From Candidatus Micrarchaeota archaeon (GTDB lineage: Archaea; Micrarchaeota; Micrarchaeia; Micrarchaeales; CABMGC01), in assembly GCA_021818995.1 (NCBI GenBank), contig JAKASP010000002.1:15689-79688 (forward strand): DNA of 64,000 nucleotides, in the 5' to 3' direction. Below, one piece after another: positions 2,144 through 61,744 of the stretch. Positions within the stretch are counted from its first letter, which is position 1. The number at the start of each line of letters is the position of its first letter. The notes beneath the pieces were generated by a model. It was not told the origin of the DNA. It saw only the letters and a program-made list of their open reading frames with translations, and made no database searches. The translations under genes and the position numbers were made by a program.

Positions 2144-2551
2144 TCAGCCCCCTATCTCGTAGATCGAGATCGCCAGCAGCGCTATTGTGCAGATGTGGAC
2201 AAGGGTGCAGTAGATGCAGATGCTGCCCAGAACGTACTCTGCACGGATGAAGTATAGGACGAACCCTATGCCTATCGCGTTGAGTGCAGCAAGCGGGGCA
2301 GGTTTTTTCAGGTAGATGAGCACGAACACACCCAGGAAGAAGAGCACGCCAAGATAGCCGTTGGGTATGCCGAAGGTGTTCGCGTAGACGCTGCTCAGCA
2401 CGCTGCCGCAGTTCAGTATTCCGACGGTCGGACAAGCGACAGGCACGTCGAATGCGGCAGAGTATGAAAGATAGATTGATGCGAGGAGGCCGATAATTGC
2501 GAGCGCTATGCGCGCCTGCGATAACCTTTTGCCTAGCTCTCTTGCCTGCAT
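2144..2551 (-). CDS. Vitamin K epoxide reductase (VKOR) family membrane protein
   Basis: 135 aa, polytopic. Loop Cys pair CPTVGILNC and a CIYC (CXXC) in the last TM region give the VKOR four-Cys layout. Confidence 0.8.
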   Translation of the reverse strand: MQARELGKRLSQARIALAIIGLLASIYLSYSAAFDVPVACPTVGILNCGSVLSSVYANTFGIPNGYLGVLFFLGVFVLIYLKKPAPLAALNAIGIGFVLYFIRAEYVLGSICIYCTLVHICTIALLAISIYEIGG

Positions 2552-2555
2552 TTGC

Positions 2556-3431
2556 TCAACCGAGCTGCGACTCGATGCTCTTGATGTAGCTCTGGCCGCA
2601 GACGCTTGCGGGCGTGTTGTTGTCCAGCGCGCAGATCTGCGCGGTCACTAGGTTTGCAGAGCCGACGAACGCCTGGGCCTGGGCTGTGCTCGGATCGTGG
2701 AGCGCGGCCGCTATCTGGCTCCAGTTCATGCCTGCAAGTATCGTGGGGTCGTTGTAGTTCGCGCCAACCAGTTTGGACACGTTGGCGTAGTCGGTGAATG
2801 GTATGCTGCCGCTCGGGTTGTACTTCGCGTAGAGCGCCTGCTGCGATGCGTTCATCTGCTGCAGCTGCGTGTACTGCCCGGTGCTCGCGTTCACCTTGTT
2901 GTTTGTCAGTTCCCTGGAGACGAACGCGATGTACGGGCTGCTGTATGTCGCGTTCACGAAAGTGAATGTGGGCGTGTTGGGTCCGGCGTCAACCGCGCTG
3001 CTCGTCATGTACTCTAGGCCAGTGAAGTTGCCGAAGCGCATCAGCGCGATTACGAGCGCCCATCTCTGCATCGCGCAGTACGGGCAGAACTCTGCGCCTA
3101 TGTACAGAACTTCTGGCTTCCCGTTCAGCGTGAGCGGGGTCGCGTTGGCTATCTTTGCAGGGAAGTTTGTCGCGAAGCCGGTGCGCACGCTTGCACTCAC
3201 ATTGCTCGGTATCGAGAGCTGCGCGAGAAGCGACTGCGGAACAGGCTGGTTGTCGAACTGCACAAGCGGGGAGGTGCCTCCACCACCGGTTCCGGTAAGC
3301 AGGAGCGCAACCGCTATGACCACTATTATTGCAAGTATTGCTATGTACAGGAACTTCCTGCTTGAGAAGAGCGAGGGTTTCGGAATAGCTGCCTGCTGCT
3401 GTTGCTGCGGCTGCTGTATTGTATCGTCCAT
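2556..3431 (-). CDS. Membrane-anchored thioredoxin-fold protein (DUF929-like), CPYC active site
   Basis: N-terminal TM, then [15 protein letters not shown], with many NxS/T sequons. ATG at 3431 lies about 25 nt below a TATA-like TTATAAAT. The track's TTG at 3446 sits inside the upstream oligo-T run. Confidence 0.75.
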
Positions 3432-3444
3432 GCCGATAAGACGC

Positions 3445-3487
3445 AAAAAAAGTATTTATAATGAGTAGCAGGCCCGTCCGGGCCTGC
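3445..3487 (-). terminator. GC-rich hairpin plus U7 tract downstream of the small ORF 3498-3761
   Basis: GCAGGCCCG-TC-CGGGCCTGC is a perfect 9-bp inverted repeat at 3468-3487. On the minus strand it is followed by TTTTTTT (3445-3451). Confidence 0.55.
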
Positions 3488-17752: not shown

Positions 17753-18148
17753 TCAGAACCGTACCGCTTCCCCTCCGGCCCGCTTTATCTTCTCCTCTGC
17801 GCTCTTTGAGAAGCCGCTTGCCTTCACCACAACAGGCTTCGCAAGCTTGCCGTCGCCGAGCACCTTGTAGCCCTTCAGCTCTATCGTCGGCTTCGCATCC
17901 TGCATGCCCGCTGCCCTCTTTGAGATCGCGTTAAGGTCTATTATATCGAGTGATTTCCTGTTCCACGGGGCGAAGCCCTTGTGCACCAGGCTCTCCCTCT
18001 CGTATACCAGCAGGTACGTCATCTTGTGCTTCCTTCCGCCCTTCCCAACGCCGCCGCGGTCGCCCGCGCCCCTTGCATTCTTTATGTTGCCGGCGCCCCA
18101 TCTCCTTCCGCCGAGGTACTTCCTCCTCTTCTTTATCCTTAGAACCAT
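17753..18148 (-). CDS. rpl15: Ribosomal protein uL15
   Basis: RKYLGGRRWGAGNIKNARGAGDRGGVGKGG glycine/basic N-terminus. 131 aa. Confidence 0.95.
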   Translation of the reverse strand: MVLRIKKRRKYLGGRRWGAGNIKNARGAGDRGGVGKGGRKHKMTYLLVYERESLVHKGFAPWNRKSLDIIDLNAISKRAAGMQDAKPTIELKGYKVLGDGKLAKPVVVKASGFSKSAEEKIKRAGGEAVRF

Positions 18149-18152
18149 GAGA

Positions 18153-18587
18153 TCACAGCATCCTTTCTATCAGCTTGTTTATGCCCTCGCTCCTGTATCC
18201 CAGGGCGCCGCCGCTGTTGTACGCGAGCTTTATGCCCTCGTAGCCGCGCTTCGGGGGATGCATCCTTATCGGCATCTCTATCTTGAGCTCCTTGGGCGAT
18301 GCGCTTCCAGAGATGAGGGAGCTCGCTGCCGATTCGTCCACCTTCACTCCCTTTGCCGCGAGCAGCTTTGCGAGCGTATCCTTGTCTATCTCGCCGAACG
18401 TGACGAAGTCCTTGCACTTGTTGACCATGCCTGCGTATGAGGCATTGGCAGAGTTCACAAGCACGAGGTTGTTCACCCTCTTCAGGTTCAGCCTGTCCAG
18501 CGTCTCTGCTATGCTTTGCCTGACCTTTACGCGCCCCCGCACTCTTATGACTGCGAGTAGCTTGCTTTTTTCTGCCATGTAGGACAC
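18153..18587 (-). CDS. rpl30: Ribosomal protein uL30
   Basis: LLAVIRVRGRVKVRQSIAETLDRLNLKRVNN. 144 aa, immediately upstream of uL15. Confidence 0.95.
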   Translation of the reverse strand: MSYMAEKSKLLAVIRVRGRVKVRQSIAETLDRLNLKRVNNLVLVNSANASYAGMVNKCKDFVTFGEIDKDTLAKLLAAKGVKVDESAASSLISGSASPKELKIEMPIRMHPPKRGYEGIKLAYNSGGALGYRSEGINKLIERML

Positions 18588-18705
18588 GCGATTACATATT
18601 GTTCTGCAAAGCTTATAAGGGTATCATGCCCTCTTACCGCTTCTAAGAATAAATGAAAGTATAAGGTTTTATAACTTGTTTCCTTATCCTAACTAGGTCA
18701 ACATA

Positions 18706-19479
18706 ATGAGGGCATCGCTCGCGTTCGCCGCTTTTCTCGTATTGGGCATGCTTGCGAGCGGAAGCGTAAGCGCTTACTTCAACGCCACATACCTCTCGAC
18801 CACTGTCTTCCTGAAGAACTCGACCACCGCGCACGTTGTAGAGGGAGTGCAGGTGTACATAAGCAACTCCTCGATAAGCACGTACAACCAGGACAGGCAG
18901 GCGTTCAACCTCTCGCTTGGCAGCTGGCAGAGGGCGCTGGGCGGATCCCCGTACCTGACGCAGCACATACTTAACCCGAAGTCCAGCATAAGCAACTTCA
19001 CCTTCCTTCCCGGCCCGATAACCCCGGCGAGCAACGGCGGGGGCTACGCTTCATTGACTATGAGCTACGACGCGAGCAACGTCACGAGCGTGGTTAGCGT
19101 CGCGCCGCGGCAGTTCGAGTACACGCTCAACAACAGCGTCTTCAACTTCGTGCACACGGCCAGCGGCCAGTCGCTGCTCCCGAGCGCAAGGCTCACGATA
19201 TTGGTGCCGAACGGGACGCAGGTAGTCACCATATACCCGCTTCCAGACTTCCCCCAGCCAAACCAGTTCGGCAAGTACTCCGGCACCAGCTTCTCCTGGT
19301 ATTCTGGCGAGCCGCTCCAGAACTTCAACTTCGTCTACATAACCACGCAGACTCCGGAGCAGGAGGTCGTGCAGTTCTTCAACTACGTATACGACAACTA
19401 CTCTGCGCTTGTCTACGCGCTCGTCGTGCTGGCCGTGGCAGCGATCGCAGCGTACATCTACTTCAGGTTCTTCAGGTGA
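18706..19479 (+). CDS. Secreted glycoprotein with signal peptide and C-terminal TM anchor
   Basis: N-terminal hydrophobic signal (FLVLGMLASGSVSA), many NxS/T sequons, and a C-terminal TM plus FRFFR. Its stop overlaps the pheS GTG start (GTGA). Confidence 0.7.
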   Translation: MRASLAFAAFLVLGMLASGSVSAYFNATYLSTTVFLKNSTTAHVVEGVQVYISNSSISTYNQDRQAFNLSLGSWQRALGGSPYLTQHILNPKSSISNFTFLPGPITPASNGGGYASLTMSYDASNVTSVVSVAPRQFEYTLNNSVFNFVHTASGQSLLPSARLTILVPNGTQVVTIYPLPDFPQPNQFGKYSGTSFSWYSGEPLQNFNFVYITTQTPEQEVVQFFNYVYDNYSALVYALVVLAVAAIAAYIYFRFFR

Positions 19480-20957
19480 ATCCATTGCATAGGCACGAGC
19501 TATCTGTGCTGAGCGCACTAAAGGAAAAGAAGAGGCTTAGCCTGGACAGGCTGCTGGCCGAGTCGGGGCTCGGGAGGGACGAGGCGCTCTGGGCGATAGG
19601 CAACCTGGCCTCGCAGGGGCTTGTGAAGGCCGAGAGGTCGGGCGGCTATGAGGTCAGGATCAGCGCCGAGGGCGAAGGTTATGTCAAGAACGGCCTGCCG
19701 GAATCGCTGCTTCTGAAGAAGGTAGGGGAGAAGGGAATAGAGCTCTCGGGCTTGGGAAGCAAGGAGGACCAGATCGGTTTCAGCTGGGCGAAGAGGAAGG
19801 GGCTTGTTGAGGTATCTGGAAAGAGGCTCAAGCTCACGGGCTCAGGAAAGCGCGCCGCCAAGGAAGGGATCGGGACTGAGTCTGTACTCAGGGCCTTAAG
19901 CAAGAACCCGGACTCGTACGCACAGTACAGGGACGGCGAGGCCACAAAGGAGCTGGAGCAGAGGAAGCTCATCGAGGTTAAATCGCACGAGAGCGTGAGC
20001 GAGATAGAGATAACGCACCAGGGAGTCCTCGCGCTTGCTAAGGAGAAGCAGACCGAGGAGGCGATAGAGAGCCTGGACAGGAGGATGATAAAGAGCAGGT
20101 CGTGGGCAGGCAAGAGGTTCACGCCGTACAACGTGAAAGCGCCGGTCGAGCCGGCGGTCGTGGCATCGCGGCATCCGCTCAGGAAGACAATAGACGAGAT
20201 ACGGCAGGCTTACGTGGGTCTCGGTTTCACAGAAGTTAGCGGGCCGATAATAGAGCCCGCGTTCTGGGTCTTCGACTACCTCTTCGTGCCGCAGGACCAT
20301 CCCGCCAGGGACGTTCAGGACACCTTCTTCCTAGGCAGGCCGAAGGAGATTCAGGTAGAGGACAGGTCGCTGGTCGAACGAGTGATGAAGGAGCACGAGA
20401 CCGCTTGGCACGGCGAATGGTCGAGGCAGGTGGCGATGCAGGCGGTTGCGAGGACGCACACAACGAGCGTGAGCGGCAGGTACATCAACAAGATAATCGG
20501 CGAGATGAACGCGGGCAAGAAGTACGAGCTTCCGATAAAGCTCTTCACGGTCGGCAGGAACCTGAGAAACGAGACGATAGACCCGAAGCACACAGCGGAC
20601 TTCTACCAGCACGACGGCATCGTGATAGGCAAGGGCCTCACGCTTGCGAACCTCTTCGACATACTGATCAAGCTCTACAAGGGAATGGGGATAGGGAACC
20701 TGAGGTTCAAGCCGATGTACTATCCGTTCGTGGAGCCCGGGGTGCAACTGTTGGGAAAGCACGGTGACGAGTGGGTCGAGCTGGGCGGAGCCGGGATAAT
20801 CAGGAAGGAGATAACAGGCATAGAGAGGAGCAAGGTGAACGTGCTCGCATGGGGACCTGGCGTGGAGCGCATTCTGCTTGTCAAGAAGGAGATCGAGAGC
20901 ATAGCTGAGCTATACGGTTCGAGCGTTGGCTGGCTGAGGAAGATGCAGGGTGTTTGA
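19476..20957 (+). CDS. pheS: Phenylalanyl-tRNA synthetase alpha subunit
   Basis: 493 aa with archaeal PheRS-alpha architecture (N-terminal wHTH repeats plus class II core). It is followed immediately by the beta subunit. Confidence 0.95.
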   Translation: MNPLHRHELSVLSALKEKKRLSLDRLLAESGLGRDEALWAIGNLASQGLVKAERSGGYEVRISAEGEGYVKNGLPESLLLKKVGEKGIELSGLGSKEDQIGFSWAKRKGLVEVSGKRLKLTGSGKRAAKEGIGTESVLRALSKNPDSYAQYRDGEATKELEQRKLIEVKSHESVSEIEITHQGVLALAKEKQTEEAIESLDRRMIKSRSWAGKRFTPYNVKAPVEPAVVASRHPLRKTIDEIRQAYVGLGFTEVSGPIIEPAFWVFDYLFVPQDHPARDVQDTFFLGRPKEIQVEDRSLVERVMKEHETAWHGEWSRQVAMQAVARTHTTSVSGRYINKIIGEMNAGKKYELPIKLFTVGRNLRNETIDPKHTADFYQHDGIVIGKGLTLANLFDILIKLYKGMGIGNLRFKPMYYPFVEPGVQLLGKHGDEWVELGGAGIIRKEITGIERSKVNVLAWGPGVERILLVKKEIESIAELYGSSVGWLRKMQGV

Positions 20958-28337: not shown

Positions 28338-29405
28338 CTAAACGTTGCCTGGCACGTACACATCCCCGCTGCCGTTCACGAATATCGTGTACGAGGAGCC
28401 CACGAAGCCGGCGCCGGAACTGTCGTTCAGCCAGACATCTACTGTGTACTCGCCCGGGCCGTTCTTGCTTATCGTGCTGCGCATGTTGAACGCGACGTTG
28501 AATCCGTTGCCGTTCGTACTGTACTGGTCAGCGACTATGGTCTGGATGTTGGAGTAGTAGTAGAGCGGGCTGCTGACGATCCCGGCCACAGTAGTGCCCG
28601 ATGAGTATGATGAGGTATTGTCCAGCTGCGCCCTTGTCATGTTCTGCGCAGGCTGGTCGTAGTTTATCTGTATGGACGAGAGCGTGTAGCCTCCTGGAAG
28701 CGTGCCAACCGCGTACATCTCGTCGTTCGAGGGATTGATGCCGTAGTTGCTCCAGCTCACGTAGTCGTTTATGAAGTCCTCGGTGAAGTACACGCTGCTT
28801 GCGTTGTAAGCTATGCCTATGCTCACCTGGTTGTGCTGAGGCGTGAGTATGTTCTCCCTGTGCCCGTTGTTGCAGCACGCACTGTCGTTGTACATCATCT
28901 CGTACTCCATCTGCTGCAGCGCCTGCTTCACGTTTATGTTGCCCGTGCATCCGAATATGCCGCATGTGGCGCTCTCCCTGAACGCTATGTTCTCCTGCAC
29001 CGCCCCTTTGCCCCCGACCAGGGTGTAGCGCATGTAGGGCTTCATCCCGTACGGATCCCAGTGGCTGAAGTAATCGCCGACTAGCATGCTGTCGGAGTGC
29101 TGCTGTCCCGATGGCTCGTTCGAGAGCGTGACGTTTCCCAGCCCGTACTTCTGCCTGTCGGAGTTTATGAGGCTGAGCGCGTACGCGTCGAGCTGGGCGC
29201 TGGTCTGGGAGGTGTTGACCTGGGCAGTTGTTGTCAGGAGTGTGCCGTTTGCGGGCAGAACAGTGGAAGTTAGGTTGAGGAACGATGAGAGCGGGTTGTT
29301 CTGGTTCAGCACGACGTGCGTGTAAGATTCGTAGGCGAGGCCGGCGAGCAGTAGCACTATGGCTATCGTTATCACGTTTGTTATGGTACTCGCGGCGCTG
29401 CCCAT
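28338..29405 (-). CDS. Membrane-anchored CAP/SCP (PR-1/YkwD-like) domain glycoprotein
   Basis: N-terminal TM, CAP-like core (DYFSHWDPYG ... NGHRENIL), several Cys, many NxS/T sequons, and a beta-rich C-terminal domain. Confidence 0.8.
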   Translation of the reverse strand: MGSAASTITNVITIAIVLLLAGLAYESYTHVVLNQNNPLSSFLNLTSTVLPANGTLLTTTAQVNTSQTSAQLDAYALSLINSDRQKYGLGNVTLSNEPSGQQHSDSMLVGDYFSHWDPYGMKPYMRYTLVGGKGAVQENIAFRESATCGIFGCTGNINVKQALQQMEYEMMYNDSACCNNGHRENILTPQHNQVSIGIAYNASSVYFTEDFINDYVSWSNYGINPSNDEMYAVGTLPGGYTLSSIQINYDQPAQNMTRAQLDNTSSYSSGTTVAGIVSSPLYYYSNIQTIVADQYSTNGNGFNVAFNMRSTISKNGPGEYTVDVWLNDSSGAGFVGSSYTIFVNGSGDVYVPGNV

Positions 29406-37454: not shown

Positions 37455-37883
37455 TTACCTCTTAGGCTTCTCCACCTTGCCCTTCACGACCTGGAAGAGG
37501 TCCGCGCCGTTGACGCCTATGACCCTGTACTTCAGGCCCGGTATGCAGCCCATCTGGCCTCGCTGCGATCCCCCGAGCCCCTGTATCATAACCTCGTCGT
37601 GCTCCTCTATGAAGTTTATCGAGCCGTCGTACGGGACGTATGCGCCTACGACCTTGCCGTTCTTTATAAGCTGCACGCGCACGCACTTTATCAGTCCGGA
37701 GTGCGGCTGCTTCTGCTGCAGAACGAACTTCTGGAGCACGAGGGCCCTGGCCATCGGCACTGTGCCCACGGGGTCGTACTTCTGCTTCAGCTTGAAGTAC
37801 TTCCTCTTCCACGACTTCTTCAGCAAGCGGTCCAGCTTGCGCTTCTTCTTCAGCTTCAAACCCGCGAACTGTCCGTTTGCCAT
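37455..37883 (-). CDS. rps12: Ribosomal protein uS12
   Basis: ATG at 37883 gives MANGQFAGLKLKKKRK...PHSGLIKCVRVQLIKNGK. The upstream part of the track ORF overlaps eL30. Confidence 0.95.
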   Translation of the reverse strand: MANGQFAGLKLKKKRKLDRLLKKSWKRKYFKLKQKYDPVGTVPMARALVLQKFVLQQKQPHSGLIKCVRVQLIKNGKVVGAYVPYDGSINFIEEHDEVMIQGLGGSQRGQMGCIPGLKYRVIGVNGADLFQVVKGKVEKPKR

Positions 37884-37888
37884 AGTTA

Positions 37889-38188
37889 TCAATATTCCTC
37901 GGTAAGTATCTTTGAGTTGCCGGCCTCGATCACTGCCAGGCTGTTTATGGAGTAGGGCTTGCCACACACGGTGCCGAGCTCCATCGAGCTTCCCTTGAAC
38001 ATCACCAGTTTTATGCCAGCGACGTTGCAGAGATGCGTTATGTCGTCTATCGCATCGGCCTTGCCCTTGCTAGTTATAACCACAAGCTTGGCCCTGTTGC
38101 CGCTGACCGCCTTCTGGGTCTCCTCGGTGCCCAGGGCAACGCTTCCAGTATCGACAGCGAGCCTTAGGTCGTTGTTCAAATCTGCCAT
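37889..38188 (-). CDS. rpl30e: Ribosomal protein eL30
   Basis: 99 aa. LAVDTGSVALGTEETQKAVSGNRAKLVVITS. Confidence 0.95.
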   Translation of the reverse strand: MADLNNDLRLAVDTGSVALGTEETQKAVSGNRAKLVVITSKGKADAIDDITHLCNVAGIKLVMFKGSSMELGTVCGKPYSINSLAVIEAGNSKILTEEY

Positions 38189-38269
38189 GCTAACCAGTGA
38201 AAAAGCGTCTTTCCAGAAAAGAAAAACCGCCGTATAAACATATCGCCAAAAGTATTTAAAGGTTGATAA

Positions 38270-39289
38270 TTACTGCGTCGAGAGAGTGGTGTTGCAGCCT
38301 GCAGGAGTCGCTATCTGCCCGCTGAGCAGCAGCTTGACGTAGCCAAGAACCGGGATGTCGCCGATCACGTAGCCGAGCACCGCGCTCTGGTTCGACGGAT
38401 AGTTCCCGAACTCTATGTCCAGGGCCTGGTTGTTGTCTCCCTTGGTCAGGAAGTAGTACTGGCCGCTCACGTTGAGTATCGCGTAGAGCCTGTGTATTAT
38501 GCTGCCGCTGAAGCTGTCCCTGCTCGTGGTCTGGTAGACGATTATCGGGTTGCTGTAGTTCTCGGAAATGGTAGTGTTCCCTATGGTGATATTGGAAGTG
38601 TATATCGCGCTGAAGACCTCCCTCCCGTAGTGCAGGCTGCCTATCGAGTAAGAGTACTTTATCAGGTTCGGCTGCTGCGCCTGCACGGGCACTGAGCACT
38701 TTGACACGACGCTCTGCTTGCCGAGGTACTGGGCCTGCGAAACGCAGATGGTGTTGTAGAGGCCTATATCGTACTGCACGCTGCTGTTTGGTATCACGTA
38801 CGAGATCTGTGATTTGTTGCCGTTGAAGTAGGCGAAGTATGCGAGGAACTCGTTTGGCATGCTTGCCTGCATTGCATCGAATGCGGACTGGTTCACGCTT
38901 ATCACAGGCACGTGGTTGGATTGCGCAAAGTTCGACACGTTGTCTATGCCGTGCAGCACCACCAGATCGCCCCTATGTAGCGCCGGCAGCATGCTGCAGC
39001 TCGAAACGGCGTCGACGGGCGCGGAGGTGTGCAGCACGATTATCAGGAGTATCCAGAAGATGACCGCTGCGCCTATCGCTACGCCTATGTCCACCACGCT
39101 CTTCCTTGCGCCCTCAGTCGCTACGCTTGTCCTGACCTCAAAGACCAGTATGATGATTATCAGGATGAAGGCTACGGCGCCCACGACTATGTTGCCGTAC
39201 AGGGCGTATATTGCGATTAGCGCGATAAGAAGAAGGTAGAGAAGCCAAGACAGCTTCGACTCGTGCTTCCTTGCTTTCTTGTCTTTCAC
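38270..39289 (-). CDS. Signal peptidase I (archaeal/Sec11-type) with a large insertion
   Basis: Box B SSCSMLPALHRGDLVV (Ser nucleophile), IIHRLYA (His box) and TKGDNN. 339 aa, three N-terminal TM segments. Confidence 0.8.
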   Translation of the reverse strand: MKDKKARKHESKLSWLLYLLLIALIAIYALYGNIVVGAVAFILIIIILVFEVRTSVATEGARKSVVDIGVAIGAAVIFWILLIIVLHTSAPVDAVSSCSMLPALHRGDLVVLHGIDNVSNFAQSNHVPVISVNQSAFDAMQASMPNEFLAYFAYFNGNKSQISYVIPNSSVQYDIGLYNTICVSQAQYLGKQSVVSKCSVPVQAQQPNLIKYSYSIGSLHYGREVFSAIYTSNITIGNTTISENYSNPIIVYQTTSRDSFSGSIIHRLYAILNVSGQYYFLTKGDNNQALDIEFGNYPSNQSAVLGYVIGDIPVLGYVKLLLSGQIATPAGCNTTLSTQ

Positions 39290-39303
39290 GAGAATAACCA
39301 GTA

Positions 39304-42300
39304 TTACTTCTTACTAACATTTGATATTTCTATCCCATATACCTGCGAATCGCCGCCGCTCTTGGTGACGCCCACGGCCGCATCAGCGTTGACTATCAGG
39401 GAGTCGTTGTGGCTCACTACGACGAACTGCGCGCCCTTCGCCATCTCCTTTATCAGCTGCGAGAGCTTCTTCGAGTTCTCCTTGTCCAGAGCCGTGTCTA
39501 TCTCGTCGAAGAGGTAAACGGATGAGGGCTTGCACATGTGTATCGCGAAGAGAAGCATTAGCGATATGAGCGACTTCTGCCCACCGGAAAGCCCCCTGCT
39601 GTGCCCCACGAAGTTCGCGTCCTCTATCTTTATGCTAAGGCCGGTGTCAAGCGGGCTGCTCTGGTCCTCGAGCTCTATCTTCGCCTTGCCAGGGTATATG
39701 AAGTTGTAGAGCTTTGAGAAGTTCTTGCCCACTTCGTTGAATGTTGTTATGAAAGCGTTGAGCTTCTTCGACTCTATCTCCTCTATCATCGACATCACGG
39801 CCTTCCTCTCGCCCTCGAGAGTGTTCACCTTCTCGGTGGCCTCGCTCACGCTTCTGGATTTCTCCTCATACGCCTCTGGCGCCTTGAGGTTGACGCTTCC
39901 GAGCGCCTCGATCTTTGCTCCGAGCACCTGCGCCTCCTTCTCCATCTTCTCGACGTCTTCGTTGACTATCTCCGGGGCGGAGTTGCTGTAGGCGCTGAGC
40001 TCTGCAGCTATGTCGTTGAGCCTCATCTCGGTCTGGCCCTGCTTCACCCTGATCTCGCTCATCTGCTTCTCCATGCCCTCGGCCTTGGAGTTGTGTGCCG
40101 CCTGCTCCGTTATGAGCTTCTCCTGCTCCTTCGCTATCGCATCCTGTCTCTCGAGCGCTTCCTTGTTGGACTTGCTGCTCTTCTTCATGTGGCCCTCTAC
40201 CTCAACCTTCGACTTGAGTAGCTCGGCTTGCTTCTTGACGTAGTCTGAGGACTGCTTCCTTGTCTTCTCGACCAGTTCGCTCTTCTCCTTTAGCTCGCGG
40301 CCCTTCTGCTGCAGCGTCTCGGTAAGCATCTTGCTCTCCTGCTGCTTCTCCGCAACCTTTATCTTAGATTCCTCTATCTCCTTGTTTAGCGATGAGAGCC
40401 TCTCGGCGTCCTCTTTCCTCATTCCCTTGTGTGCGGCTTCCAGCGATTCCGAGTAGGCAGCGCTTCTCTCGCCCTTCCTGCCCTCGAGATCCTTGGACAG
40501 CTGCAGCGCATGCGTGCGCGCGTTCTCGAAGTCTGAGAGCGTCTTCTTCGATTCCTTCTCAGCCAGAGAGATGCCGGATTCGAGCTTGGCCTTCTGCTCT
40601 CCGCGCTCCTTTATCCTCTTGTTGTACTCTTCTATGGACGAGTTTGCCGAAGCCATCTCGATGTCGGCCTCCGCTGCCTCCTTCCTGCTTGCGAAATACT
40701 TTGCGTCTATCTCCTTAGCCTCTGCGAACGCCCTTCCCCTCGAGTCCTCGAGCTCCTTGAGCCTCTTCTCTAGCGCTGCTATCGAGAGCACCTTTGCGCG
40801 AGAGCCACCGGAGAGCACTCCGGCGCGCTCTACCGTCTCGCCAGAAAGCGTCACGTACCTGTGTCTCCCTGTTCCGAGCGCCTTCGCCTCGTCAACGTCT
40901 TTTACAAGATATGTGTTGCTGAATATGTACGAGAACACTTTCCCGAACTTGGCATCGTACTGGAGCAGGTCTGTCAGCGCCTGAAGGCCCTTCTCCTTCG
41001 ACTCCTGCTCCACGTGCAGCTCACGCAGCGGAATGAAGGTCGCCCTTCCAAGGCTTTGCTTCTTGAGGTACTGGATCATCTCGTTCGCCACGTCCATGGA
41101 CTCGACAACGAAGTAGTTGAAGCGCGACCCGGCCGCGGCCTCTACCGCCTCCGCGTGTCTGCCGTCATAGGTGCAGAGCTCGGCCACTGTGCCGAAGAAT
41201 CCCGGGTGCTTTGAGAATGCTGACTTGAGCTTGCCCTGCATCGCCCCGTCCCTCGAATGCGCGGACGCCCTCTGCTCCCTGAGCGATATTATCTCGCTGT
41301 CGGCTGCGCTGAGCGTGTTCTTCAGTTCATCTGAACGTGCCTGGAGCTCTGCCGACTTCTTCTCTGCGCGCTCCTTCCTCGTCTTCTCTCCCTGCGCCTT
41401 CTCCCTCAACTCTGACGCCGAGGCCATCTCCTTCGCTATCTCCTCGTCTATCTTCGCAATCTCCCTGAGCGCGCTCTCCTTCCTCGCATCCACGAGCGTT
41501 TTCTCGGTCTGCAGCCTCGCCAGCTTCTCCTGCGCGCTTGTGAACTCTTTTTCAAGTGCAGAAATGCTCACGTCCAGTTCCTTGACCCTCTTTCCCGAAT
41601 CGCCTGCGCTGCCATTGCTCCCGAGTTTCTTAGCCTGCGCCTCGAGTTCAACGAGTCTGGACCGCATGCCCGCGACCTCGGCCTCGTTGCCCTTTATCTT
41701 CTCGCCTATCCCCTTTATCTCCTCGGATATCGAGGTGGTTAGCCTTGTTGTTTCTTCAATTGTAGAAGCAGCAGTTGTCATCTTGACCTCAAGGGCGCTG
41801 AGCTCGTTGCCGACATCGGCAAGCCTCTTGTTGACGCCATCGATCGCCGTGGTGCTGTTTGTGAGCATGTCCGATATCTTCTGCCTCTCCTCTGAAAGTG
41901 CGGATATCTTCTTCGCATACTCTGCCAGCTTCACCTCGACCGTCTTCTTCTCGGCCTCGAGCTTCGCTATCTCCTTTGAGTATGCGTCTAGGTTGAGCTG
42001 CGACGCCTTCTGCCTCTTCGTGAGTATGCTGTAGTTGAGCGACTTGAGCCGCTTGCTCATGAGCAGGTAGTTCTCCGCGGCTTCCTTCTCCTTCGCGAGC
42101 TCGTTCAGGAAAGTGGTCCTCTCGTTGAGCATCGCCTGCGCCGTGCTTATCCTTATGCCGACCTTCTCCAGCTCCTGCATCGCCTCCTTCTTCTTGTAGT
42201 CGAACTCCTGTATGCCCGCGGCTATGTCTATGAACTCCCTGCGCTGCTTTGCGTTCGCCTCTATTATCTTGTTTATCTCTCCCTGCGCTATCGTGCTCGT

Positions 42301-42690
42301 CTCGTCTATGTGGACGCTGTGCTTCTTCAGCACCTCTAGCACCTCCTGCCTGGTCATGCGCTTCCCGTTCAGCCTGTACACCGTCTTTCCGTCGGCGCGT
42401 ATGCCCCTGCTTATCTCTATCTTCTCGTCGCCGTCCAGCTCGAGCTTGACGTGCGCCTTGGAGAGGTTTGCGGCTCCTCTGCTCGAACCCTCTCTTATAA
42501 GGTACTGCAGCCGGTCGACGCGCAGCCTGTGCAGCGAGCTTTCACCGAGTGAAAAGAGTAGGGCGTCGATTATGTTGCTCTTGCCGCTGCCGTTCGGCCC
42601 CACTATGCAGTTGAAGCCTTTGTTAAAGATGACGCTGATGTGTTTGAAAGACTTAAACCTGTCTATGCTCATGGATTTGAGGTAGAGCAC
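39304..42690 (-). CDS. smc: SMC chromosome segregation ATPase
   Basis: Walker A GPNGSGKSN, long coiled coils, a hinge, signature LSGGQKSL and Walker B LFDEIDTALD. 1128 aa. Confidence 0.95.
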   Translation of the reverse strand: MLYLKSMSIDRFKSFKHISVIFNKGFNCIVGPNGSGKSNIIDALLFSLGESSLHRLRVDRLQYLIREGSSRGAANLSKAHVKLELDGDEKIEISRGIRADGKTVYRLNGKRMTRQEVLEVLKKHSVHIDETSTIAQGEINKIIEANAKQRREFIDIAAGIQEFDYKKKEAMQELEKVGIRISTAQAMLNERTTFLNELAKEKEAAENYLLMSKRLKSLNYSILTKRQKASQLNLDAYSKEIAKLEAEKKTVEVKLAEYAKKISALSEERQKISDMLTNSTTAIDGVNKRLADVGNELSALEVKMTTAASTIEETTRLTTSISEEIKGIGEKIKGNEAEVAGMRSRLVELEAQAKKLGSNGSAGDSGKRVKELDVSISALEKEFTSAQEKLARLQTEKTLVDARKESALREIAKIDEEIAKEMASASELREKAQGEKTRKERAEKKSAELQARSDELKNTLSAADSEIISLREQRASAHSRDGAMQGKLKSAFSKHPGFFGTVAELCTYDGRHAEAVEAAAGSRFNYFVVESMDVANEMIQYLKKQSLGRATFIPLRELHVEQESKEKGLQALTDLLQYDAKFGKVFSYIFSNTYLVKDVDEAKALGTGRHRYVTLSGETVERAGVLSGGSRAKVLSIAALEKRLKELEDSRGRAFAEAKEIDAKYFASRKEAAEADIEMASANSSIEEYNKRIKERGEQKAKLESGISLAEKESKKTLSDFENARTHALQLSKDLEGRKGERSAAYSESLEAAHKGMRKEDAERLSSLNKEIEESKIKVAEKQQESKMLTETLQQKGRELKEKSELVEKTRKQSSDYVKKQAELLKSKVEVEGHMKKSSKSNKEALERQDAIAKEQEKLITEQAAHNSKAEGMEKQMSEIRVKQGQTEMRLNDIAAELSAYSNSAPEIVNEDVEKMEKEAQVLGAKIEALGSVNLKAPEAYEEKSRSVSEATEKVNTLEGERKAVMSMIEEIESKKLNAFITTFNEVGKNFSKLYNFIYPGKAKIELEDQSSPLDTGLSIKIEDANFVGHSRGLSGGQKSLISLMLLFAIHMCKPSSVYLFDEIDTALDKENSKKLSQLIKEMAKGAQFVVVSHNDSLIVNADAAVGVTKSGGDSQVYGIEISNVSKK

Positions 42691-42735
42691 TCACACCACT
42701 GGTCGCAAATATTCTTCAGTCCTGAAGGATTTAAA

Positions 42736-43800
42736 TTACTTGCGGCTGTGCCCTCGAAGAATGTGGAGGGAGAGGAACGCCTGTATGTGCGATATGGTCA
42801 CTATCCCTACCAGCTTGCCCTTGTGCGTGACCGCTGCCAGGCCCGATTCGTTTGATTCCATTGACTCAAGGGCATCGATTATGTTCTCGTTCATGTCAAC
42901 GCTCGGTATCTTAACGGCAAGGTCCCTGGCCCACATCTCCGGCCTAAGCCTCTCCTTCCTGAGCAGGTTGACGTACGCGTAGCCGTCGCCGAGCTTTGTT
43001 ATGAGCATATGCTCCCTTGTGCGCTTCACCGTCTGGTAGAGCTCCTGCACGCTGCTGCTCGGCGCAACGAGCACGAAGCGCTTGGTGGCGAGGCTCCTCA
43101 GCTTCACGCCCCTTGTCTCCCTCTTTATCTCTATCGTCTGCTTCTCCTGCTGTGCCCCGTTGTAGAGGAAGAAGACTATGAGGAGGTCCCACAGGAAGAT
43201 GAACTCTTTGGAGTAGAATGGAGCTGTGATGATGAGCACGTACGCGAGCGTGCCGAGTATGAAGAGCCCCATCGTGACGTTGCTCGCCTTTATAGTGATC
43301 ATCGTGGCCTTGTACTCGTCGTACTTCCTCTCGAGCCAGCTCCTGAATACGCGTCCGCCGTCGGTCGGGAATGCCGGAAGCAGGTTGAACGCGCCGAGCA
43401 GTATGTTTATCTCGAAGAGGAACTGCAGCACCTCTGTGAGCGAACCGGGAGGCGAGAAGGCCACAAAGAAACCGAAGATCGCGCCCAGCAGCAGGCTCAT
43501 CAGCGGCCCAGCCACCGCTATGTTGAACTCTATCCTGGGATCTATCTCAGATATGTCTATTATCGAGACGCCGCCAAGGGGAAGGAGCACTATCCTGCTC
43601 ACGCGTATCCCGTTCCTCATAGAGACGAACGAGTGCGATAGCTCGTGTATGAGCACGCAGAGGAAGAGGAGCACAATAAGCACGAAAAGGAAGCCGGTCG
43701 GCAGGCTGAGCCACAGCGTGACCAGCAGAAGTGCGATGAAGGTCCAGTGGAGCTCTATGTCTATGCCCCAGATCTTCCCTATCTTGTAGGCGTCGGCCAT
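42736..43800 (-). CDS. Site-2 protease (M50) with C-terminal CBS pair
   Basis: HELSH zinc motif and NLLPAFPTDGG, with a CBS-like C-terminus. ATG at 43800 (MADAYKIGKIWG). The upstream 200 codons of the track ORF are antisense to the phosphoesterase gene. Confidence 0.85.
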   Translation of the reverse strand: MADAYKIGKIWGIDIELHWTFIALLLVTLWLSLPTGFLFVLIVLLFLCVLIHELSHSFVSMRNGIRVSRIVLLPLGGVSIIDISEIDPRIEFNIAVAGPLMSLLLGAIFGFFVAFSPPGSLTEVLQFLFEINILLGAFNLLPAFPTDGGRVFRSWLERKYDEYKATMITIKASNVTMGLFILGTLAYVLIITAPFYSKEFIFLWDLLIVFFLYNGAQQEKQTIEIKRETRGVKLRSLATKRFVLVAPSSSVQELYQTVKRTREHMLITKLGDGYAYVNLLRKERLRPEMWARDLAVKIPSVDMNENIIDALESMESNESGLAAVTHKGKLVGIVTISHIQAFLSLHILRGHSRK

Positions 43801-43854
43801 GCAGTCGAGAGTTAGTTGGCGATTAAGTATAATAAACCTGTTTGAGAAAAGGGC

Positions 43855-44589
43855 ATGATGCTCGTTTCTTTCGTCAAAGAGGTGCCCGCGCTGCTGATAA
43901 AACGCGAGCGCGCGCTGGTTGTCGGGGATCTGCACATAGGCATGCATCTCAAGCTTAGGGAGAAGGGCCTCTATTTCCAGAAGGCGACAGAGCGGATGGC
44001 GGATAGCCTCATCGATGCCTATGGGAAGTCTGGGGCCAAGAGCCTGGTGCTCCTGGGCGACATCAAGGAGAGCGTGACCTCGCCGAAATTCGCAGAATAC
44101 AGGGAGCTGAAGCTTTTCTTCGACTCCATTGCCGGAATAGACACGAGGATCGTCAAGGGGAACCACGATGGCGGCCTTGAGAGGGTGCTCGCCAACATGG
44201 GCTTCAAGGTACCGGTCTCGACGGAGGTGTTTGTCGACGGCATTGCGCTTGCGCACGGCAATGCGTGGCCTTCGGCGATGGCGATGGAGAAGAGGTACGT
44301 GGCTGTGGGGCACGGACACTACGCACTTATGAACCGCGGCTTTCTTGAAAAGATATGGATCGTGTCCGGCGTGGCGAAAAACGCCGGAAAGAGGTATGCG
44401 CATTACAGAAAAGACATCAAGCTTATCGTCGCGCCCTCTTTCAACAGTCTCATAACAGGCAGCGCACTCGGCGCGGAGACCAAGAACTACCTGCCGCTTT
44501 TCAAGAACAACGCATTCTCATTCGAGAATGCAATTGTTTACGGGCTTGACGCCAAAAAACGCGGAACTGTAAGCCAGCTGATCAGATAG
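43855..44589 (+). CDS. Calcineurin-like metallophosphoesterase (COG1407-like)
   Basis: GDLHIG, LLGDIKE, GNHD and GHGH motifs in canonical order. Confidence 0.8.
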   Translation: MMLVSFVKEVPALLIKRERALVVGDLHIGMHLKLREKGLYFQKATERMADSLIDAYGKSGAKSLVLLGDIKESVTSPKFAEYRELKLFFDSIAGIDTRIVKGNHDGGLERVLANMGFKVPVSTEVFVDGIALAHGNAWPSAMAMEKRYVAVGHGHYALMNRGFLEKIWIVSGVAKNAGKRYAHYRKDIKLIVAPSFNSLITGSALGAETKNYLPLFKNNAFSFENAIVYGLDAKKRGTVSQLIR

Positions 44590-46021
44590 GATTAGGCGGA
44601 AATCTCGCCTTTGCCTCCTTGATCTCGTTCTCGACCATCTGCTTCCAGGGCTTGAACTCATTCGCGCTCTTCGGGTACTTCTTGTAGATGTCTATCAGCT
44701 TCTTCATCTTCCCGTGCGCGTAGACCAGGTTCTTGAATGCGTTTATGTTAGATATGCCGCTTAGTATCTTGTTGAACGTGCTTGCTATGCTTATCTCCGG
44801 CACAAGCCCGTAGCTCATCGCGGTCGCCTCCTCTTTTGAGAGGAAGTGGCTCATGCCGTAGTTTATCAGGTCGTTGTTGAGCGACTGCAGGAAGATACGG
44901 AAGACCTCCAGGCCTGCGGTCTTGTTCCCGTACGCGTCGTTGAATCTCGTGTTGTACTTCCATAGGAAGTCCATGCTCGTGTCGTTCGCAGCTATTGCCT
45001 CTGCGGCAGTCTTGCCCGCGAGTATGCCCGCGACCATCGCAGGGCCTATCCCGCCGGCGCTTATCGGATTCGGCATCGTCATCGTGTCGCCCGCGCCGAG
45101 GTAGTTCTTGTAAACTAGGCTGTCGAACTGCCTGCGCACGGCTACAGACCAGTATCCCTTCCCGTTGTGGTCCGTCTCGTCCACTTTCATGTTCTTCAGC
45201 ACGGGGTTCCACTCAACGTACTCGTCTATCAGCTTGTGGAGCGTGTCCGTCTTCACGAGCTTCTTGTTCCTCAGATCTAGGCTCTTCTTCTCCACGCCTA
45301 TGCCTATGTTGATCTTGCCGTCGCTCTTAGGAAAGACCCAGCCGTAGCCCCCTGGTGCAAGCTGCTGGTTGAGGTGTATGATTGCGTTCTTAGGATCGTA
45401 GTAGTTCAGGTCCTCCTTGATGTGGTCGAACCTCGCTATGTACCTTCCCGTGGACTCTATGTCGTCTATGCTCACATCCTTCTCTATGAACTCGTTGGGA
45501 GGCAGCCTCCTTCTCAGCGTGCTCGCCATCCCAAGGCAGTCGATTATGACCTTCGCATGGATCTCGAAGTGCTGCGTCTTCTCGTCCTTGCCGAAGACGC
45601 CGACGAGTTCACCATTTTCCAGCACCGGGCCCTCAACCTCGTGCTTCGGCCTGTAGTCAACGCCCTGCTTCACTGCCTCGCTGACCATCTTCCTCGCGTA
45701 CTTCGGCCTGTCCAGCGTATAGCCCTCTCCCTCGAAGAGGAACTTGTTCTTCATGTCCGGGCTGAGCACGTATACGCCGTCAACCACGTGATCCAGCTCA
45801 GGCTTCGAGAGCCTTATGCCGACCTCTTTCTCTATGAAGTCTACGTGCGCCTTTGCCACTGCATCGCCGCAGACCCATCCCCAATTGGTCTTCTTGCCCG
45901 CTTCCTGCTGGTCGTTCCTGTCAAGAAGCAAGACCTTTGCGCCGCCTTTCGCGGCGGATATTGCCGCGAGAGCGCCGGCCATACCGGCTCCTGCGACTAT
46001 TATGTCAAAATCAGAACTCAT
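44582..46021 (-). CDS. Geranylgeranyl reductase family flavoprotein (lipid saturase-like)
   Basis: DIIVAGAGMAGA FAD motif and WGWVCGDAV. 479 aa. Its ATG overlaps the rpoK stop (ATGA). Confidence 0.85.
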   Translation of the reverse strand: MSSDFDIIVAGAGMAGALAAISAAKGGAKVLLLDRNDQQEAGKKTNWGWVCGDAVAKAHVDFIEKEVGIRLSKPELDHVVDGVYVLSPDMKNKFLFEGEGYTLDRPKYARKMVSEAVKQGVDYRPKHEVEGPVLENGELVGVFGKDEKTQHFEIHAKVIIDCLGMASTLRRRLPPNEFIEKDVSIDDIESTGRYIARFDHIKEDLNYYDPKNAIIHLNQQLAPGGYGWVFPKSDGKINIGIGVEKKSLDLRNKKLVKTDTLHKLIDEYVEWNPVLKNMKVDETDHNGKGYWSVAVRRQFDSLVYKNYLGAGDTMTMPNPISAGGIGPAMVAGILAGKTAAEAIAANDTSMDFLWKYNTRFNDAYGNKTAGLEVFRIFLQSLNNDLINYGMSHFLSKEEATAMSYGLVPEISIASTFNKILSGISNINAFKNLVYAHGKMKKLIDIYKKYPKSANEFKPWKQMVENEIKEAKARFPPNPI

Positions 46022-46200
46022 CTCTGCACCTTGCCCTTCATGACCACTATCGGTATCACGTCCTCCTGGAACTCCAGTTCTGCGAGAGCAAGTGGATCTG
46101 TGATTCCATCAGGGACCTTTATGAGCGGCGGTGCGCCGTAGGCGAGCTGCAGCGCCCTTGCGCCGATTATTCTCGCTTTCTCGAACTTCGTGTACTCCAT
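46018..46200 (-). CDS. rpoK: DNA-directed RNA polymerase subunit K (Rpo6)
   Basis: 60 aa. TKFEKARIIGARALQLAYGAPPLI. Confidence 0.9.
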   Translation of the reverse strand: MEYTKFEKARIIGARALQLAYGAPPLIKVPDGITDPLALAELEFQEDVIPIVVMKGKVQR

Positions 46201-46305
46201 TGGATCAACTGGCGCGTCTATTCTTCAAAGTGGGTCTTGATAAAGAGTTCATACTCTCTTTGCTGATAAAGTTTATAATGCTTGCGAAGGGCTTTACGAC
46301 GTCTT

Positions 46306-47022
46306 TCATCTTATGGGCTCGTAGTGCTCCTTCGGCTTCTTGAGCAGGTGGTACCTGGCTATGTTGCCGACGTGGTACCCGAAGAATCCGGAAACGCCCC
46401 AGGCGTTTATCCTTCTTGTGCTCGTGTGCACGACAGCGTCGTCTACGTATTTTATGCGACCGTGTTTCCTGAGCCTAAGCGAAAGGTCCCAATCCTCGTA
46501 TGTGGCATAATCTTCGTTGAATCCGCCTATCTTGTCAAAGGCGCTCTTCTTCACCGCAAAATTCAGCCCGACTACCGACGGCCTGCCGAGGAGTATCGAC
46601 GACTTGACAAAAAGAACAGAGACGAACTTGAACCCGAGGCTCACCCTCCTGCTCGTCTTTTCGAGCGGGTATATGGGTCCTGTCGCGGCAACAACGCCAT
46701 CGTCCCTCATGCTTCTCTCGTACGCTTCTAGCAGGTGTTCTGAAGGCACCGTGTCCGCATCCAGGAAGACCAGAAGCCTGCCGCGCGCGGCTCGCGCGCC
46801 GGTGTTCCTGTTCCTGGATATGCCACGCCTTTTCTCGGTTACGACCCTGACCCTGGGAAACCTGCTGGAAATTTCCTTTGTCTTGTCTGTGCTGTCGTTA
46901 TCCGATACGATGATCTCGAAATCCTTGAAAGTCTGCTTCTGCAGGCTCTCGAGAACGTCGCCTATGTACTTTTCCTCGTTGAATGCCGGAATTATGACGC
47001 TGATTGGCACTTCCTGTTGCAT
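46306..47022 (-). CDS. GT2 glycosyltransferase
   Basis: ISVIIPAFNEEKYI, SDNDSTD and FLDADT (DXD). Confidence 0.9.
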   Translation of the reverse strand: MQQEVPISVIIPAFNEEKYIGDVLESLQKQTFKDFEIIVSDNDSTDKTKEISSRFPRVRVVTEKRRGISRNRNTGARAARGRLLVFLDADTVPSEHLLEAYERSMRDDGVVAATGPIYPLEKTSRRVSLGFKFVSVLFVKSSILLGRPSVVGLNFAVKKSAFDKIGGFNEDYATYEDWDLSLRLRKHGRIKYVDDAVVHTSTRRINAWGVSGFFGYHVGNIARYHLLKKPKEHYEPIR

Positions 47023-61198: not shown

Positions 61199-61744
61199 TC
61201 AGGAGAGGTCCACGGCTACTGGGCACTGGGCCATGTACTGCGCGTTCCCGTAGATGCTTAACCTGTAAGGCGTTATCTCTGTTTGGTTGTTCACACTGTA
61301 GTTGAGGAAGATGCTTGGCTCGCCGACTGTCATGTTGATGCAGTTCTGGATCGTGTTCGTCGCTAGGCTGACCGTGTGCCCCAGGCCCCCGACCGGATAG
61401 GTGCATCTTGTGCCGTTCAGCACGTAGAAGTCTATGGTTGTGGCGTTCCTTGAGTGCGCAGCTACCTGTACAACCTGGGTGGCGCACTGGAGCACGGACC
61501 CGGCCTGCGACTGGTCGCTGTACGACGCGACCACAGAGACGCGCTGGGCTCCCAGGAAGGTGCTCTTGAAGGTGCTGAACGGGACCGAGAGCGTGGGAAG
61601 CACGACGACAAAAAAGACCACGAACGCGATTACTATCGGAGCGGCGACAAGCAGCGCGCTTCTCATTCCAGACCTGCTTGGCTTGCTCTCTTTTGCCCCT
61701 TTAGTCTCACTCTTCTTGGCAGTTTTCTCGGTCTGTTTGGCCAT
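61199..61744 (-). CDS. N-terminally anchored 4-Cys ectodomain glycoprotein
   Basis: Lys-rich cytosolic N-terminus, one TM, then an ectodomain with 4 Cys and NxS/T sequons. It is paralogous to the C-terminus of the upstream gene. Confidence 0.65.
   Translation of the reverse strand: MAKQTEKTAKKSETKGAKESKPSRSGMRSALLVAAPIVIAFVVFFVVVLPTLSVPFSTFKSTFLGAQRVSVVASYSDQSQAGSVLQCATQVVQVAAHSRNATTIDFYVLNGTRCTYPVGGLGHTVSLATNTIQNCINMTVGEPSIFLNYSVNNQTEITPYRLSIYGNAQYMAQCPVAVDLS

Follow-up and report, generated by a model that had tools for sequence, protein, structure and literature searches.

Extracytoplasmic disulfide bonds are introduced in E. coli by DsbA, a thioredoxin-fold oxidase with a CPxC motif, which the four-helix membrane protein DsbB recycles by reducing quinone. 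In M. tuberculosis the VKOR protein Rv2968c adjoins the membrane-tethered DsbA-like protein Rv2969c, and MdbA-VKOR pairs are known from actinobacteria. A third arrangement is the VKOR-thioredoxin fusion of Synechococcus (structures 3KP9, 4NV2, 4NV5 and 4NV6). The role of VKOR as a replacement of DsbB was described by Dutton et al. (2008), as summarised in a recent preprint (bioRxiv 10.64898/2026.03.05.709764). Here we analyse a locus of a very small, acidophilic Candidatus Micrarchaeota archaeon in which a gene for a stand-alone VKOR homologue directly follows a gene for a membrane-anchored protein of the DUF929 family (Pfam PF06053). The locus lies in a stretch of 64,000 nucleotides (contig JAKASP010000002.1 of assembly GCA_021818995.1, positions 15,689 to 79,688), which we refer to as the window. 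We consider it probable that the two proteins form an oxidative folding pair of the DsbA/VKOR type, with the DUF929 protein as disulfide donor. A literature search found no published link of DUF929 to VKOR or to disulfide formation.

Functionally, the locus appears closest to the Rv2969c-Rv2968c and MdbA-VKOR systems. Common to all of them are a stand-alone four-helix VKOR with a loop cysteine pair and a membrane CxxC, encoded downstream of a separate, N-terminally anchored thioredoxin-fold protein with a CPxC motif (predicted to face outward in the present case), and an expected flow of electrons from the substrate via the partner and VKOR to quinone. The differences concern the partner, which here belongs to PF06053, has an insert predicted as beta-rich in place of the helical cap and carries an additional invariant C-terminal cysteine pair, and the host, which is a DPANN archaeon from a genus with no evident respiratory chain. 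In comparison with the Synechococcus fusion, the four cysteines and the loop serine are in register over residues 16-125, and the thioredoxin-like partner is oxidised there by the loop cysteines, as would be expected here. However, the cyanobacterial partner is attached C-terminally via a fifth helix, whereas the archaeal one is a separate protein of another family with its own N-terminal anchor, and the DUF929-VKOR pair can be regarded as a split version of this fusion. With the E. coli system the locus would share the recycling scheme, and the predicted secretome has even cysteine counts, but VKOR would take the place of DsbB and DUF929 that of DsbA, and no reductive branch of the DsbC/DsbD type was detected.

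The DUF929-VKOR locus and its products

The source assembly comprises 485 kb in 4 contigs and is 63% complete. The locus was read from sequence alone, and the operon, the promoter and the leaderless start given below are predictions. Its features are as follows:

2556..3431, minus strand: DUF929-family gene, 291 amino acids (ATG at 3431, stop TGA at 2558-2556)
2144..2551, minus strand: stand-alone VKOR gene, 135 amino acids (ATG at 2551, stop at 2146-2144)
2552..2558, minus strand: gene junction, with the DUF929 TGA, 4 nucleotides GCAA (2555-2552) and then the VKOR ATG
3453..3461, minus strand: TATA-like box TTATAAATA, a putative archaeal promoter centred ~26 nucleotides 5' of the DUF929 ATG
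3297..3353, minus strand: predicted single N-terminal transmembrane anchor of DUF929, residues 27-45 (Kyte-Doolittle mean 3.31 over 19 residues; helix 25-45 in the structural model)
3075..3086, minus strand: DUF929 active-site CPYC (C116-P117-Y118-C119) at the N-terminus of helix 117-131, aligned with the CxxC of thioredoxin-fold matches
2799..2801, minus strand: invariant DUF929 Pro211 (I-P-F) at the cis-proline loop position, directly before strand 212-215, presumably in the cis state
2598..2633, minus strand: second invariant DUF929 cysteine pair C267...C278 in the C-terminal helices, probably a structural disulfide
2408..2434, minus strand: VKOR loop cysteines C40 and C48 (CPTVGILNC) between transmembrane helices 1 and 2, aligned with Synechococcus C50 and C56
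2207..2218, minus strand: VKOR active-site CIYC (C112, C115) at the start of transmembrane helix 4, aligned with Synechococcus C130 and C133 (CMYC)

The two genes look like a two-gene operon with a leaderless or near-leaderless first cistron, judging from the spacing of the TATA-like box, a 9-bp GC hairpin (3487-3468) between an upstream open reading frame of 87 amino acids and this box, and a downstream family-2 glycosyltransferase gene that is convergent with the VKOR stop. They would be co-transcribed, and translational coupling at the junction may be expected; the sequence GGTTGA just 5' of the VKOR ATG is weakly Shine-Dalgarno-like. The original prediction had placed both reading frames on the minus strand 4 nucleotides apart, downstream of a TATA box and a leaderless ATG, and had given the DUF929 protein one N-terminal transmembrane segment and many glycosylation sequons. 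The coordinates were confirmed, the distance of ~26 nucleotides from TTATAAATA fits a leaderless or nearly leaderless mRNA, and helix 27-45 and nine sequons were counted. The motifs quoted at that time were all recovered, namely the thioredoxin-like motif at DUF929 residues 112-124, CPTVGILNC with C40..C48 and CIYC with C112..C115 of VKOR.

By sequence comparison, the VKOR protein is an ordinary family member in which all four catalytic cysteines are kept. It matches PF07884 with 70.7 bits against a cut-off of 27.5 (E 1.7e-19, Pfam) and has no fused thioredoxin domain; the VKOR models of NCBIfam also match, with scores under their equivalog cut-offs. Residues 16-125 align with the Synechococcus VKOR structures 4NV2, 4NV6 and 3KP9. 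In an alignment of 60 VKOR proteins the loop residue S54 and both cysteines of CIYC (C112 and C115) never vary, and the conservation of C40 and C48 is at least 90%. Four hydrophobic segments were found (10-28, 61-79, 93-111 and 112-130), and Lys and Arg residues are confined to the N-terminus (3) and the loop 80-92 (2), with none in the cysteine-bearing loop 29-60. The predicted topology, in which the two redox centres lie on the outer side, equals that of VKOR from bacteria, and we propose that the protein acts as the quinone-linked re-oxidiser of DUF929.

The DUF929 protein matches PF06053 with 104 bits against a cut-off of 24.6 (E 1.1e-29, residues 96-267, Pfam). A word-index search returned 2587 homologues, and the family comprises 2201 clusters at 50% identity; the close homologues bear Micrarchaeota names. 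The protein consists of a short Gln-rich tail with Lys and Arg residues, the hydrophobic helix 27-45, a Gly/Thr linker and a domain of ~240 residues. Conservation was assessed on 40 close and 47 diverse homologues (87 aligned sequences), and C116, P117, C119, Pro211, C267 and C278 are invariant across both alignments.

An AlphaFold2 model built from the 40-sequence alignment (mean predicted local distance difference test score 90.7) leads from strand 105-112 through CPYC, helix 117-131, a beta-rich insert of ~55 residues, Pro211 and strand 212-215 to the C-terminal helices. In VIA-align, a search that does not depend on Foldseek, the top 50 matches of this model are all thioredoxin-fold proteins, from the TlpA, ResA, DsbE, Trx, DsbF, SdbA and DsbA families, with Z-scores of 5.5-7.1 for residues ~95-272 and root-mean-square deviations of 2.0-4.7 A over 84-120 residues. 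We accordingly assign DUF929 to the thioredoxin-fold oxidoreductases of clan CL0172. Since the Z-scores are modest, this assignment rests on the uniformity of the matches, on the invariant motif and its position, and on the HHpred-based placing of DUF929 in the thioredoxin clan in earlier work (PMC3091736). The protein does not fall within the DsbA family, as only PF06053 matched it at E <= 0.1 in Pfam (PF01323 and PF13462 did not), and the DUF929 family profile retrieved DsbA, DsbG, CcmG and MPT53 among PDB sequences at E 0.1-2 only, around the CPxC motif. In the model, the insert (residues 135-190) sits at a position comparable to that of the DsbA cap and is composed of predicted beta strands, and DsbA structures reach only Z 5.6.

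All indirect indicators point to an outward-facing CPYC domain of DUF929, which is the orientation given in the original prediction. Three Lys or Arg residues precede the transmembrane segment, and the charges obey the positive-inside rule. The nine N-x-S/T sequons of the ectodomain correspond to 3.7 per 100 amino acids vs 0.37 in the non-membrane open reading frames of the genome, a ~10-fold excess. Natural fusions in other organisms have the order Ser/Thr kinase, transmembrane segment, DUF929 or TIR, transmembrane segment, DUF929, with the cytoplasmic domain N-terminal of the anchor. The invariant second cysteine pair is itself typical of an oxidising compartment, and the experimental secretome of Picrophilus torridus holds three DUF929 proteins (PMC8345856).

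Among the fusion proteins, DUF929 ectodomains are connected via the anchor to kinase (P0250, P0256 and P0121) or TIR domains (P0173), and an AhpC/TSA fusion was also observed (P0205). The domain composition suggests that these proteins are redox-sensing receptors built on the DUF929 fold.

Gene linkage and phyletic distribution

Linkage of the two genes was scanned using one genome per GTDB species and a diverse DUF929 alignment, with the best 80 of at least 597 relatives kept; VKOR was sought in these 80 loci with an iterated VKOR profile and the matches were then checked in Pfam. In 59 of the 80 loci a same-strand VKOR gene is located no more than 3.1 kb away, and no opposite-strand case was found. 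VKOR is the direct downstream neighbour in ~50 of the 80 loci, is separated by one gene in four and lies upstream in five. The VKOR profile envelope starts within 300 nucleotides after the DUF929 stop in 42 loci, and in most actinobacterial loci with gaps of 300-560 nucleotides the open frame starts immediately at the stop of DUF929. All 59 neighbours are PF07884 proteins with no other Pfam family and no fused thioredoxin domain, and in the five genomes that were searched whole the adjoining VKOR is the only or the best one, with exactly matching coordinates. The remaining 21 of the 80 loci have no VKOR, and three of these end less than 450 bp from DUF929.

Outside Micrarchaeota, 47 of the 52 loci have VKOR. 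The paired loci are distributed among Micrarchaeota, Marsarchaeota, Nitrososphaerota, Actinomycetota, Chloroflexota, Dormibacterota and Acidobacteriota (one acidobacterium), and one further pair comes from an unclassified archaeon. The DUF929-VKOR pairing is thus far beyond chance. The locus had been put forward as a candidate archaeal disulfide-forming pair; the pairing stands, but it is not specific to archaea, since most of the loci are bacterial (Actinomycetota, Chloroflexota and Dormibacterota).

In an unrooted DUF929 tree of 78 rows (quick IQ-TREE run, LG+G4), Micrarchaeota together with Marsarchaeota, Nitrososphaerota, and bacteria split on well-supported branches (99), and mixing is confined to loci of Chloroflexota, Dormibacterota and Acidobacteriota. 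A recent transfer of the cassette between the domains of life was considered and rejected, as the tree follows taxonomy and no transfer into the source genome is indicated. The DUF929 gene of DAHXMX010000243.1, a contig of 1278 bp labelled Neisseriaceae, nests inside Micrarchaeota in this tree; the contig is almost certainly mis-binned and does not represent a proteobacterial DUF929.

The distribution of the two families was analysed in 151 Micrarchaeota and 151 Chloroflexota genomes. Three unpublished genomes (G029, G181 and G316) contribute one count each to the genome tallies, and the conclusions are independent of them. In the two families of Micrarchaeales DUF929 is present in 70 of 70 genomes and VKOR in 68 of 70, and in the other 18 Micrarchaeota families DUF929 occurs in none of 80 genomes and VKOR scores above the cut-off in one of 80. 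Micrarchaeales being a single clade, this pattern amounts to about one evolutionary event. Within the family of the source genome, DUF929 and VKOR abut in 17 of 26 genomes. Among Chloroflexota, VKOR was found in 26 of 33 DUF929-positive vs 57 of 118 DUF929-negative genomes (odds ratio 4.0, one-sided Fisher p 0.0014, where related genomes are not independent), and it adjoins DUF929 in 17 of the 26 genomes that have both. These counts indicate that VKOR has other partners elsewhere and that DUF929 sometimes occurs without VKOR, but the association is still clear. Co-occurrence of the two families, which had been suggested as a check on the pair, is therefore strong by the Micrarchaeales and Chloroflexota counts and by the adjacency in 59 of 80 loci.

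Exported cysteine proteins and alternative partners

Open reading frames were called crudely across the assembly, which yielded 54 exported or anchored candidates (with a single N-terminal hydrophobic segment) and 362 non-membrane proteins. Cysteine counts are even in 35 and odd in 9 of the exported or anchored candidates, which have twice the cysteine content, and even in 107 vs odd in 137 of the non-membrane proteins (Fisher p 9e-6; binomial p 5e-5); some of the odd-count exported entries look like spurious antisense reading frames. The even/odd comparison of the predicted secretome, also suggested beforehand, thus revealed a strong even bias.

In the five genomes of the genus, no match above cut-off was found for DSBA (PF01323), Thioredoxin_4 (PF13462) or DsbD/CcdA (PF02683); because the source assembly is only 63% complete, these negatives lean on its four relatives, which are 92-97% complete. 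The sole classical thioredoxin of the genus is a short WCGPC protein without an anchor and is predicted to be cytoplasmic. With none of the three families present and only an anchorless thioredoxin, the DUF929 paralogues would be the only visible extracytoplasmic thioredoxin-fold partners for VKOR in this genus.

Cysteine-bearing surface proteins, which the original prediction had named as natural substrates, are indeed encoded in the window:

28341-29405, minus strand: anchored CAP-domain protein (PF00188) with 4 ectodomain cysteines, a family uncommon in a DPANN archaeon
61202-61744 and 61752-63848: anchored 4-Cys and multi-Cys proteins

The disulfide system could plausibly act on the CAP-domain protein. 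Contig C2 also carries, at 17865-19650, 37778-46425 and 160507-162209, clusters of large anchored proteins and of small proteins whose N-termini are pilin-like (class III signal peptides of the QSAMEYLMTYGWAILII type), nearly all with even cysteine counts (2, 4, 10 and 14). From their sequences these clusters are likely to encode type IV pilus-like surface structures stabilised by disulfides.

A second DUF929 pair is encoded outside the window, at contig C2:309802-311418. It comprises a DUF929 paralogue of ~364 amino acids, which is N-terminally anchored and has a CIFC motif as well as the C-terminal cysteine pair seen in the DUF929 protein of the window, followed without a gap by a polytopic membrane protein of 171 amino acids with the motif G-C-S-C-Y. 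The latter protein matched no Pfam family, MauE included, at E <= 1. Membrane proteins of this type occur in 74 of 81 Micrarchaeales genomes. A comparison of coordinates showed that in at least 43 genomes, from both families, their gene is the immediate downstream neighbour of the long paralogue. The arrangement resembles MauD-MauE in that a thioredoxin-fold protein, here the long paralogue with CIFC, is placed beside a small polytopic protein with C-x-C between late helices. It differs in that the 171-residue protein lies outside the MauE Pfam family, and the pair is distinct from DUF929-VKOR. In E. coli, the four-helix protein MauE, whose C-x-C faces outward, was able to take over from DsbB (bioRxiv 10.64898/2026.03.05.709764), and the second pair may represent a MauE-like C-x-C disulfide generator.

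Proposed function, rival explanations and the quinone question

In the proposed mechanism, DUF929 would be tethered by its one N-terminal helix, with the glycosylated thioredoxin-fold domain outside the cell, and its oxidised CPYC (C116-C119) would pass a disulfide to cysteine pairs of proteins leaving the Sec translocon. Likely substrates would be pilin-like, CAP-domain and other surface proteins with even cysteine counts. The reduced CPYC would then be re-oxidised by the outward VKOR loop pair C40/C48, from which electrons would pass to CIYC (C112/C115) in the membrane and from there to a quinone of the membrane. The contact between DUF929 and VKOR, the direction of the flow and the acceptor are proposed here by analogy with bacterial VKOR proteins that have DsbA-like or fused partners. 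That the DsbA role is filled by an uncharacterised family, as had been supposed for this locus, seems quite likely to us in view of the genomic linkage, the conserved residues and the lack of a DsbA alternative in the genus.

A number of observations weigh against this reading. DUF929 resembles thioredoxin-fold proteins only to a moderate degree (Z at most 7.1), and a Foldseek search of PDB with the model returned no match at E <= 1e-3. The insert that follows the active-site helix and precedes the cis-Pro strand is predicted to be beta-rich, unlike the helical DsbA cap, so that DsbA-like substrate handling by DUF929 is not assured. In the sister family of Micrarchaeales the two genes abut in none of 45 genomes; they lie 7-60 kb apart or on different contigs, often on one contig at a distance of 7-40 kb. 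In five genomes, from genera g3 and g5, the long paralogue is the only DUF929 found, and four of them retain VKOR, which evidently can work with something else. VKOR was also not found in 7 of the 33 DUF929-positive Chloroflexota. No VKOR-DUF929 fusion protein was found among long DUF929 homologues: a search for long proteins revealed two fusions, one with a kinase and one PKD/chitodextrinase-like, neither of them with VKOR, and ten long representatives carry kinase, TIR or AhpC domains or nothing, VKOR being in none. The missing fusions are weak evidence because long candidates crowd out relatives. The quinone acceptor is a further weak point, since cytochrome bd oxidase was found in none of the five genomes of the genus, and Mia14, a cultured relative among the Micrarchaeota, is reported to have cytochrome bd without quinone biosynthesis or quinone-reducing dehydrogenases, a situation called puzzling by its authors, who propose that host quinones are borrowed (PMC5498576).

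These points can be set against three other explanations. The VKOR-linked DUF929 could be oxidised by VKOR and yet have a narrow task, which would be the oxidation of one or a few dedicated substrates (an S-layer protein or pilins, for instance) or mainly isomerisation or proof-reading. General oxidation would then be carried out by the long paralogue and its CxC protein. The second pair is the main reason for keeping this explanation: the genome has two DUF929 paralogues, each beside a different four-helix membrane protein, and the adjacency of the long paralogue and the CxC protein, seen in at least 43 Micrarchaeales of both families, is more constant than that of the VKOR pair. The capacity of a four-helix CxC protein, MauE, to replace DsbB in E. 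coli (bioRxiv 10.64898/2026.03.05.709764) and the difference between the insert and the DsbA cap point in the same direction. Outside Micrarchaeota, however, a locus usually holds no such pair other than VKOR and a short-type DUF929, and the genus offers VKOR no second candidate partner. An isomerase would need a reductive supply of the DsbD/CcdA type, which was not found, and Ile predominates at the position preceding the invariant Pro, where DsbC/DsbG-type isomerases typically carry Thr. We regard a dedicated role of this kind as unlikely.

Another explanation sees the purpose of the pair in quinone reduction, whereby DUF929 would gather electrons from external or protein thiols and VKOR would reduce a membrane quinone, possibly derived from the host; the quinol would feed cytochrome bd where it is present, or a quinone or vitamin-K-like cofactor would be kept reduced. 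Vertebrate VKOR does run in the quinone-reduction direction with thioredoxin-like donors. The presence of VKOR in 68 of 70 Micrarchaeales would suit such a purpose. So would the reported possession of bd by Mia14 without a known quinone-reducing dehydrogenase or quinone synthesis (PMC5498576). Yet bd is found in only 27 of 81 Micrarchaeales and in none of the five genomes of the genus, whereas VKOR is near-universal, and a need for disulfide formation itself is evident from the even-cysteine bias of the secretome. The two purposes are also not exclusive, since in E. coli a by-product of DsbB activity is the supply of electrons to the quinone pool, and quinone reduction as the purpose of the pair seems to us quite improbable. 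The adjacency might finally be a historical accident or reflect a hitch-hiking cassette, with no exchange of electrons and a non-redox DUF929, for example a structural surface glycoprotein. Linkage is absent from one Micrarchaeales family and from some bacteria, and the kinase- and TIR-fused DUF929 domains suggest sensor roles. But same-strand adjacency is kept in at least seven phyla of both domains, with a tree that follows taxonomy and not one recent transfer, and CPxC, the Pro at the cis-Pro position and the second cysteine pair are invariant in 87 sequences; a non-redox protein would not keep CPxC at the thioredoxin active-site position. This explanation is very improbable, and the reading of DUF929 and VKOR as an oxidative folding pair is the one that we retain.

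For the acceptor of this pair, several suggestions can be made. A UbiA-family prenyltransferase is encoded on contig C2 (132933-133889, minus strand), and its best NCBIfam matches are to MenA (DHNA polyprenyltransferase), at 89.6 bits vs a cut-off of 264; judged by sequence, it may attach a prenyl chain to a naphthoquinone head group obtained by salvage, or its acceptor may be a lipid or heme. A reading that we think unlikely is that VKOR is the missing quinone reductase upstream of the orphan bd oxidase in the bd-bearing Micrarchaeota. In its wider form, DUF929-VKOR would be the only quinone-reducing module encoded in Micrarchaeales and would use quinones from, or shared with, the wall-less Thermoplasmatales host. 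The chain in bd-bearing members would then lead from thiols via DUF929, VKOR, quinol and bd to O2, and for oxidative protein folding the bd-less genus would lean on the respiratory chain of the host at sites of cell-cell contact. If true, quinone reduction by DUF929-VKOR would account for the 'puzzling' orphan bd of cultured ARMAN archaea.

The mechanism proposed here is in itself unsurprising, and the gain lies in a testable function for a large domain family. DUF929, a family found in several archaeal phyla as well as in soil Actinomycetota, Chloroflexota and Dormibacterota, has had no assigned function. If the proposed role is true, surveys of oxidative-folding capacity that rely on DsbA homologues miss the organisms that use DUF929, and part of the long-noted gap formed by genomes with VKOR or DsbB and no recognisable partner would be filled. 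It would also raise the question of how quinones are obtained and recycled in such cells. A DPANN symbiont with a genome of ~0.8 Mb would then keep two dedicated modules for extracytoplasmic thiol oxidation, and disulfide-stabilised surface proteins would be central to its life in acid habitats and its attachment to the host.

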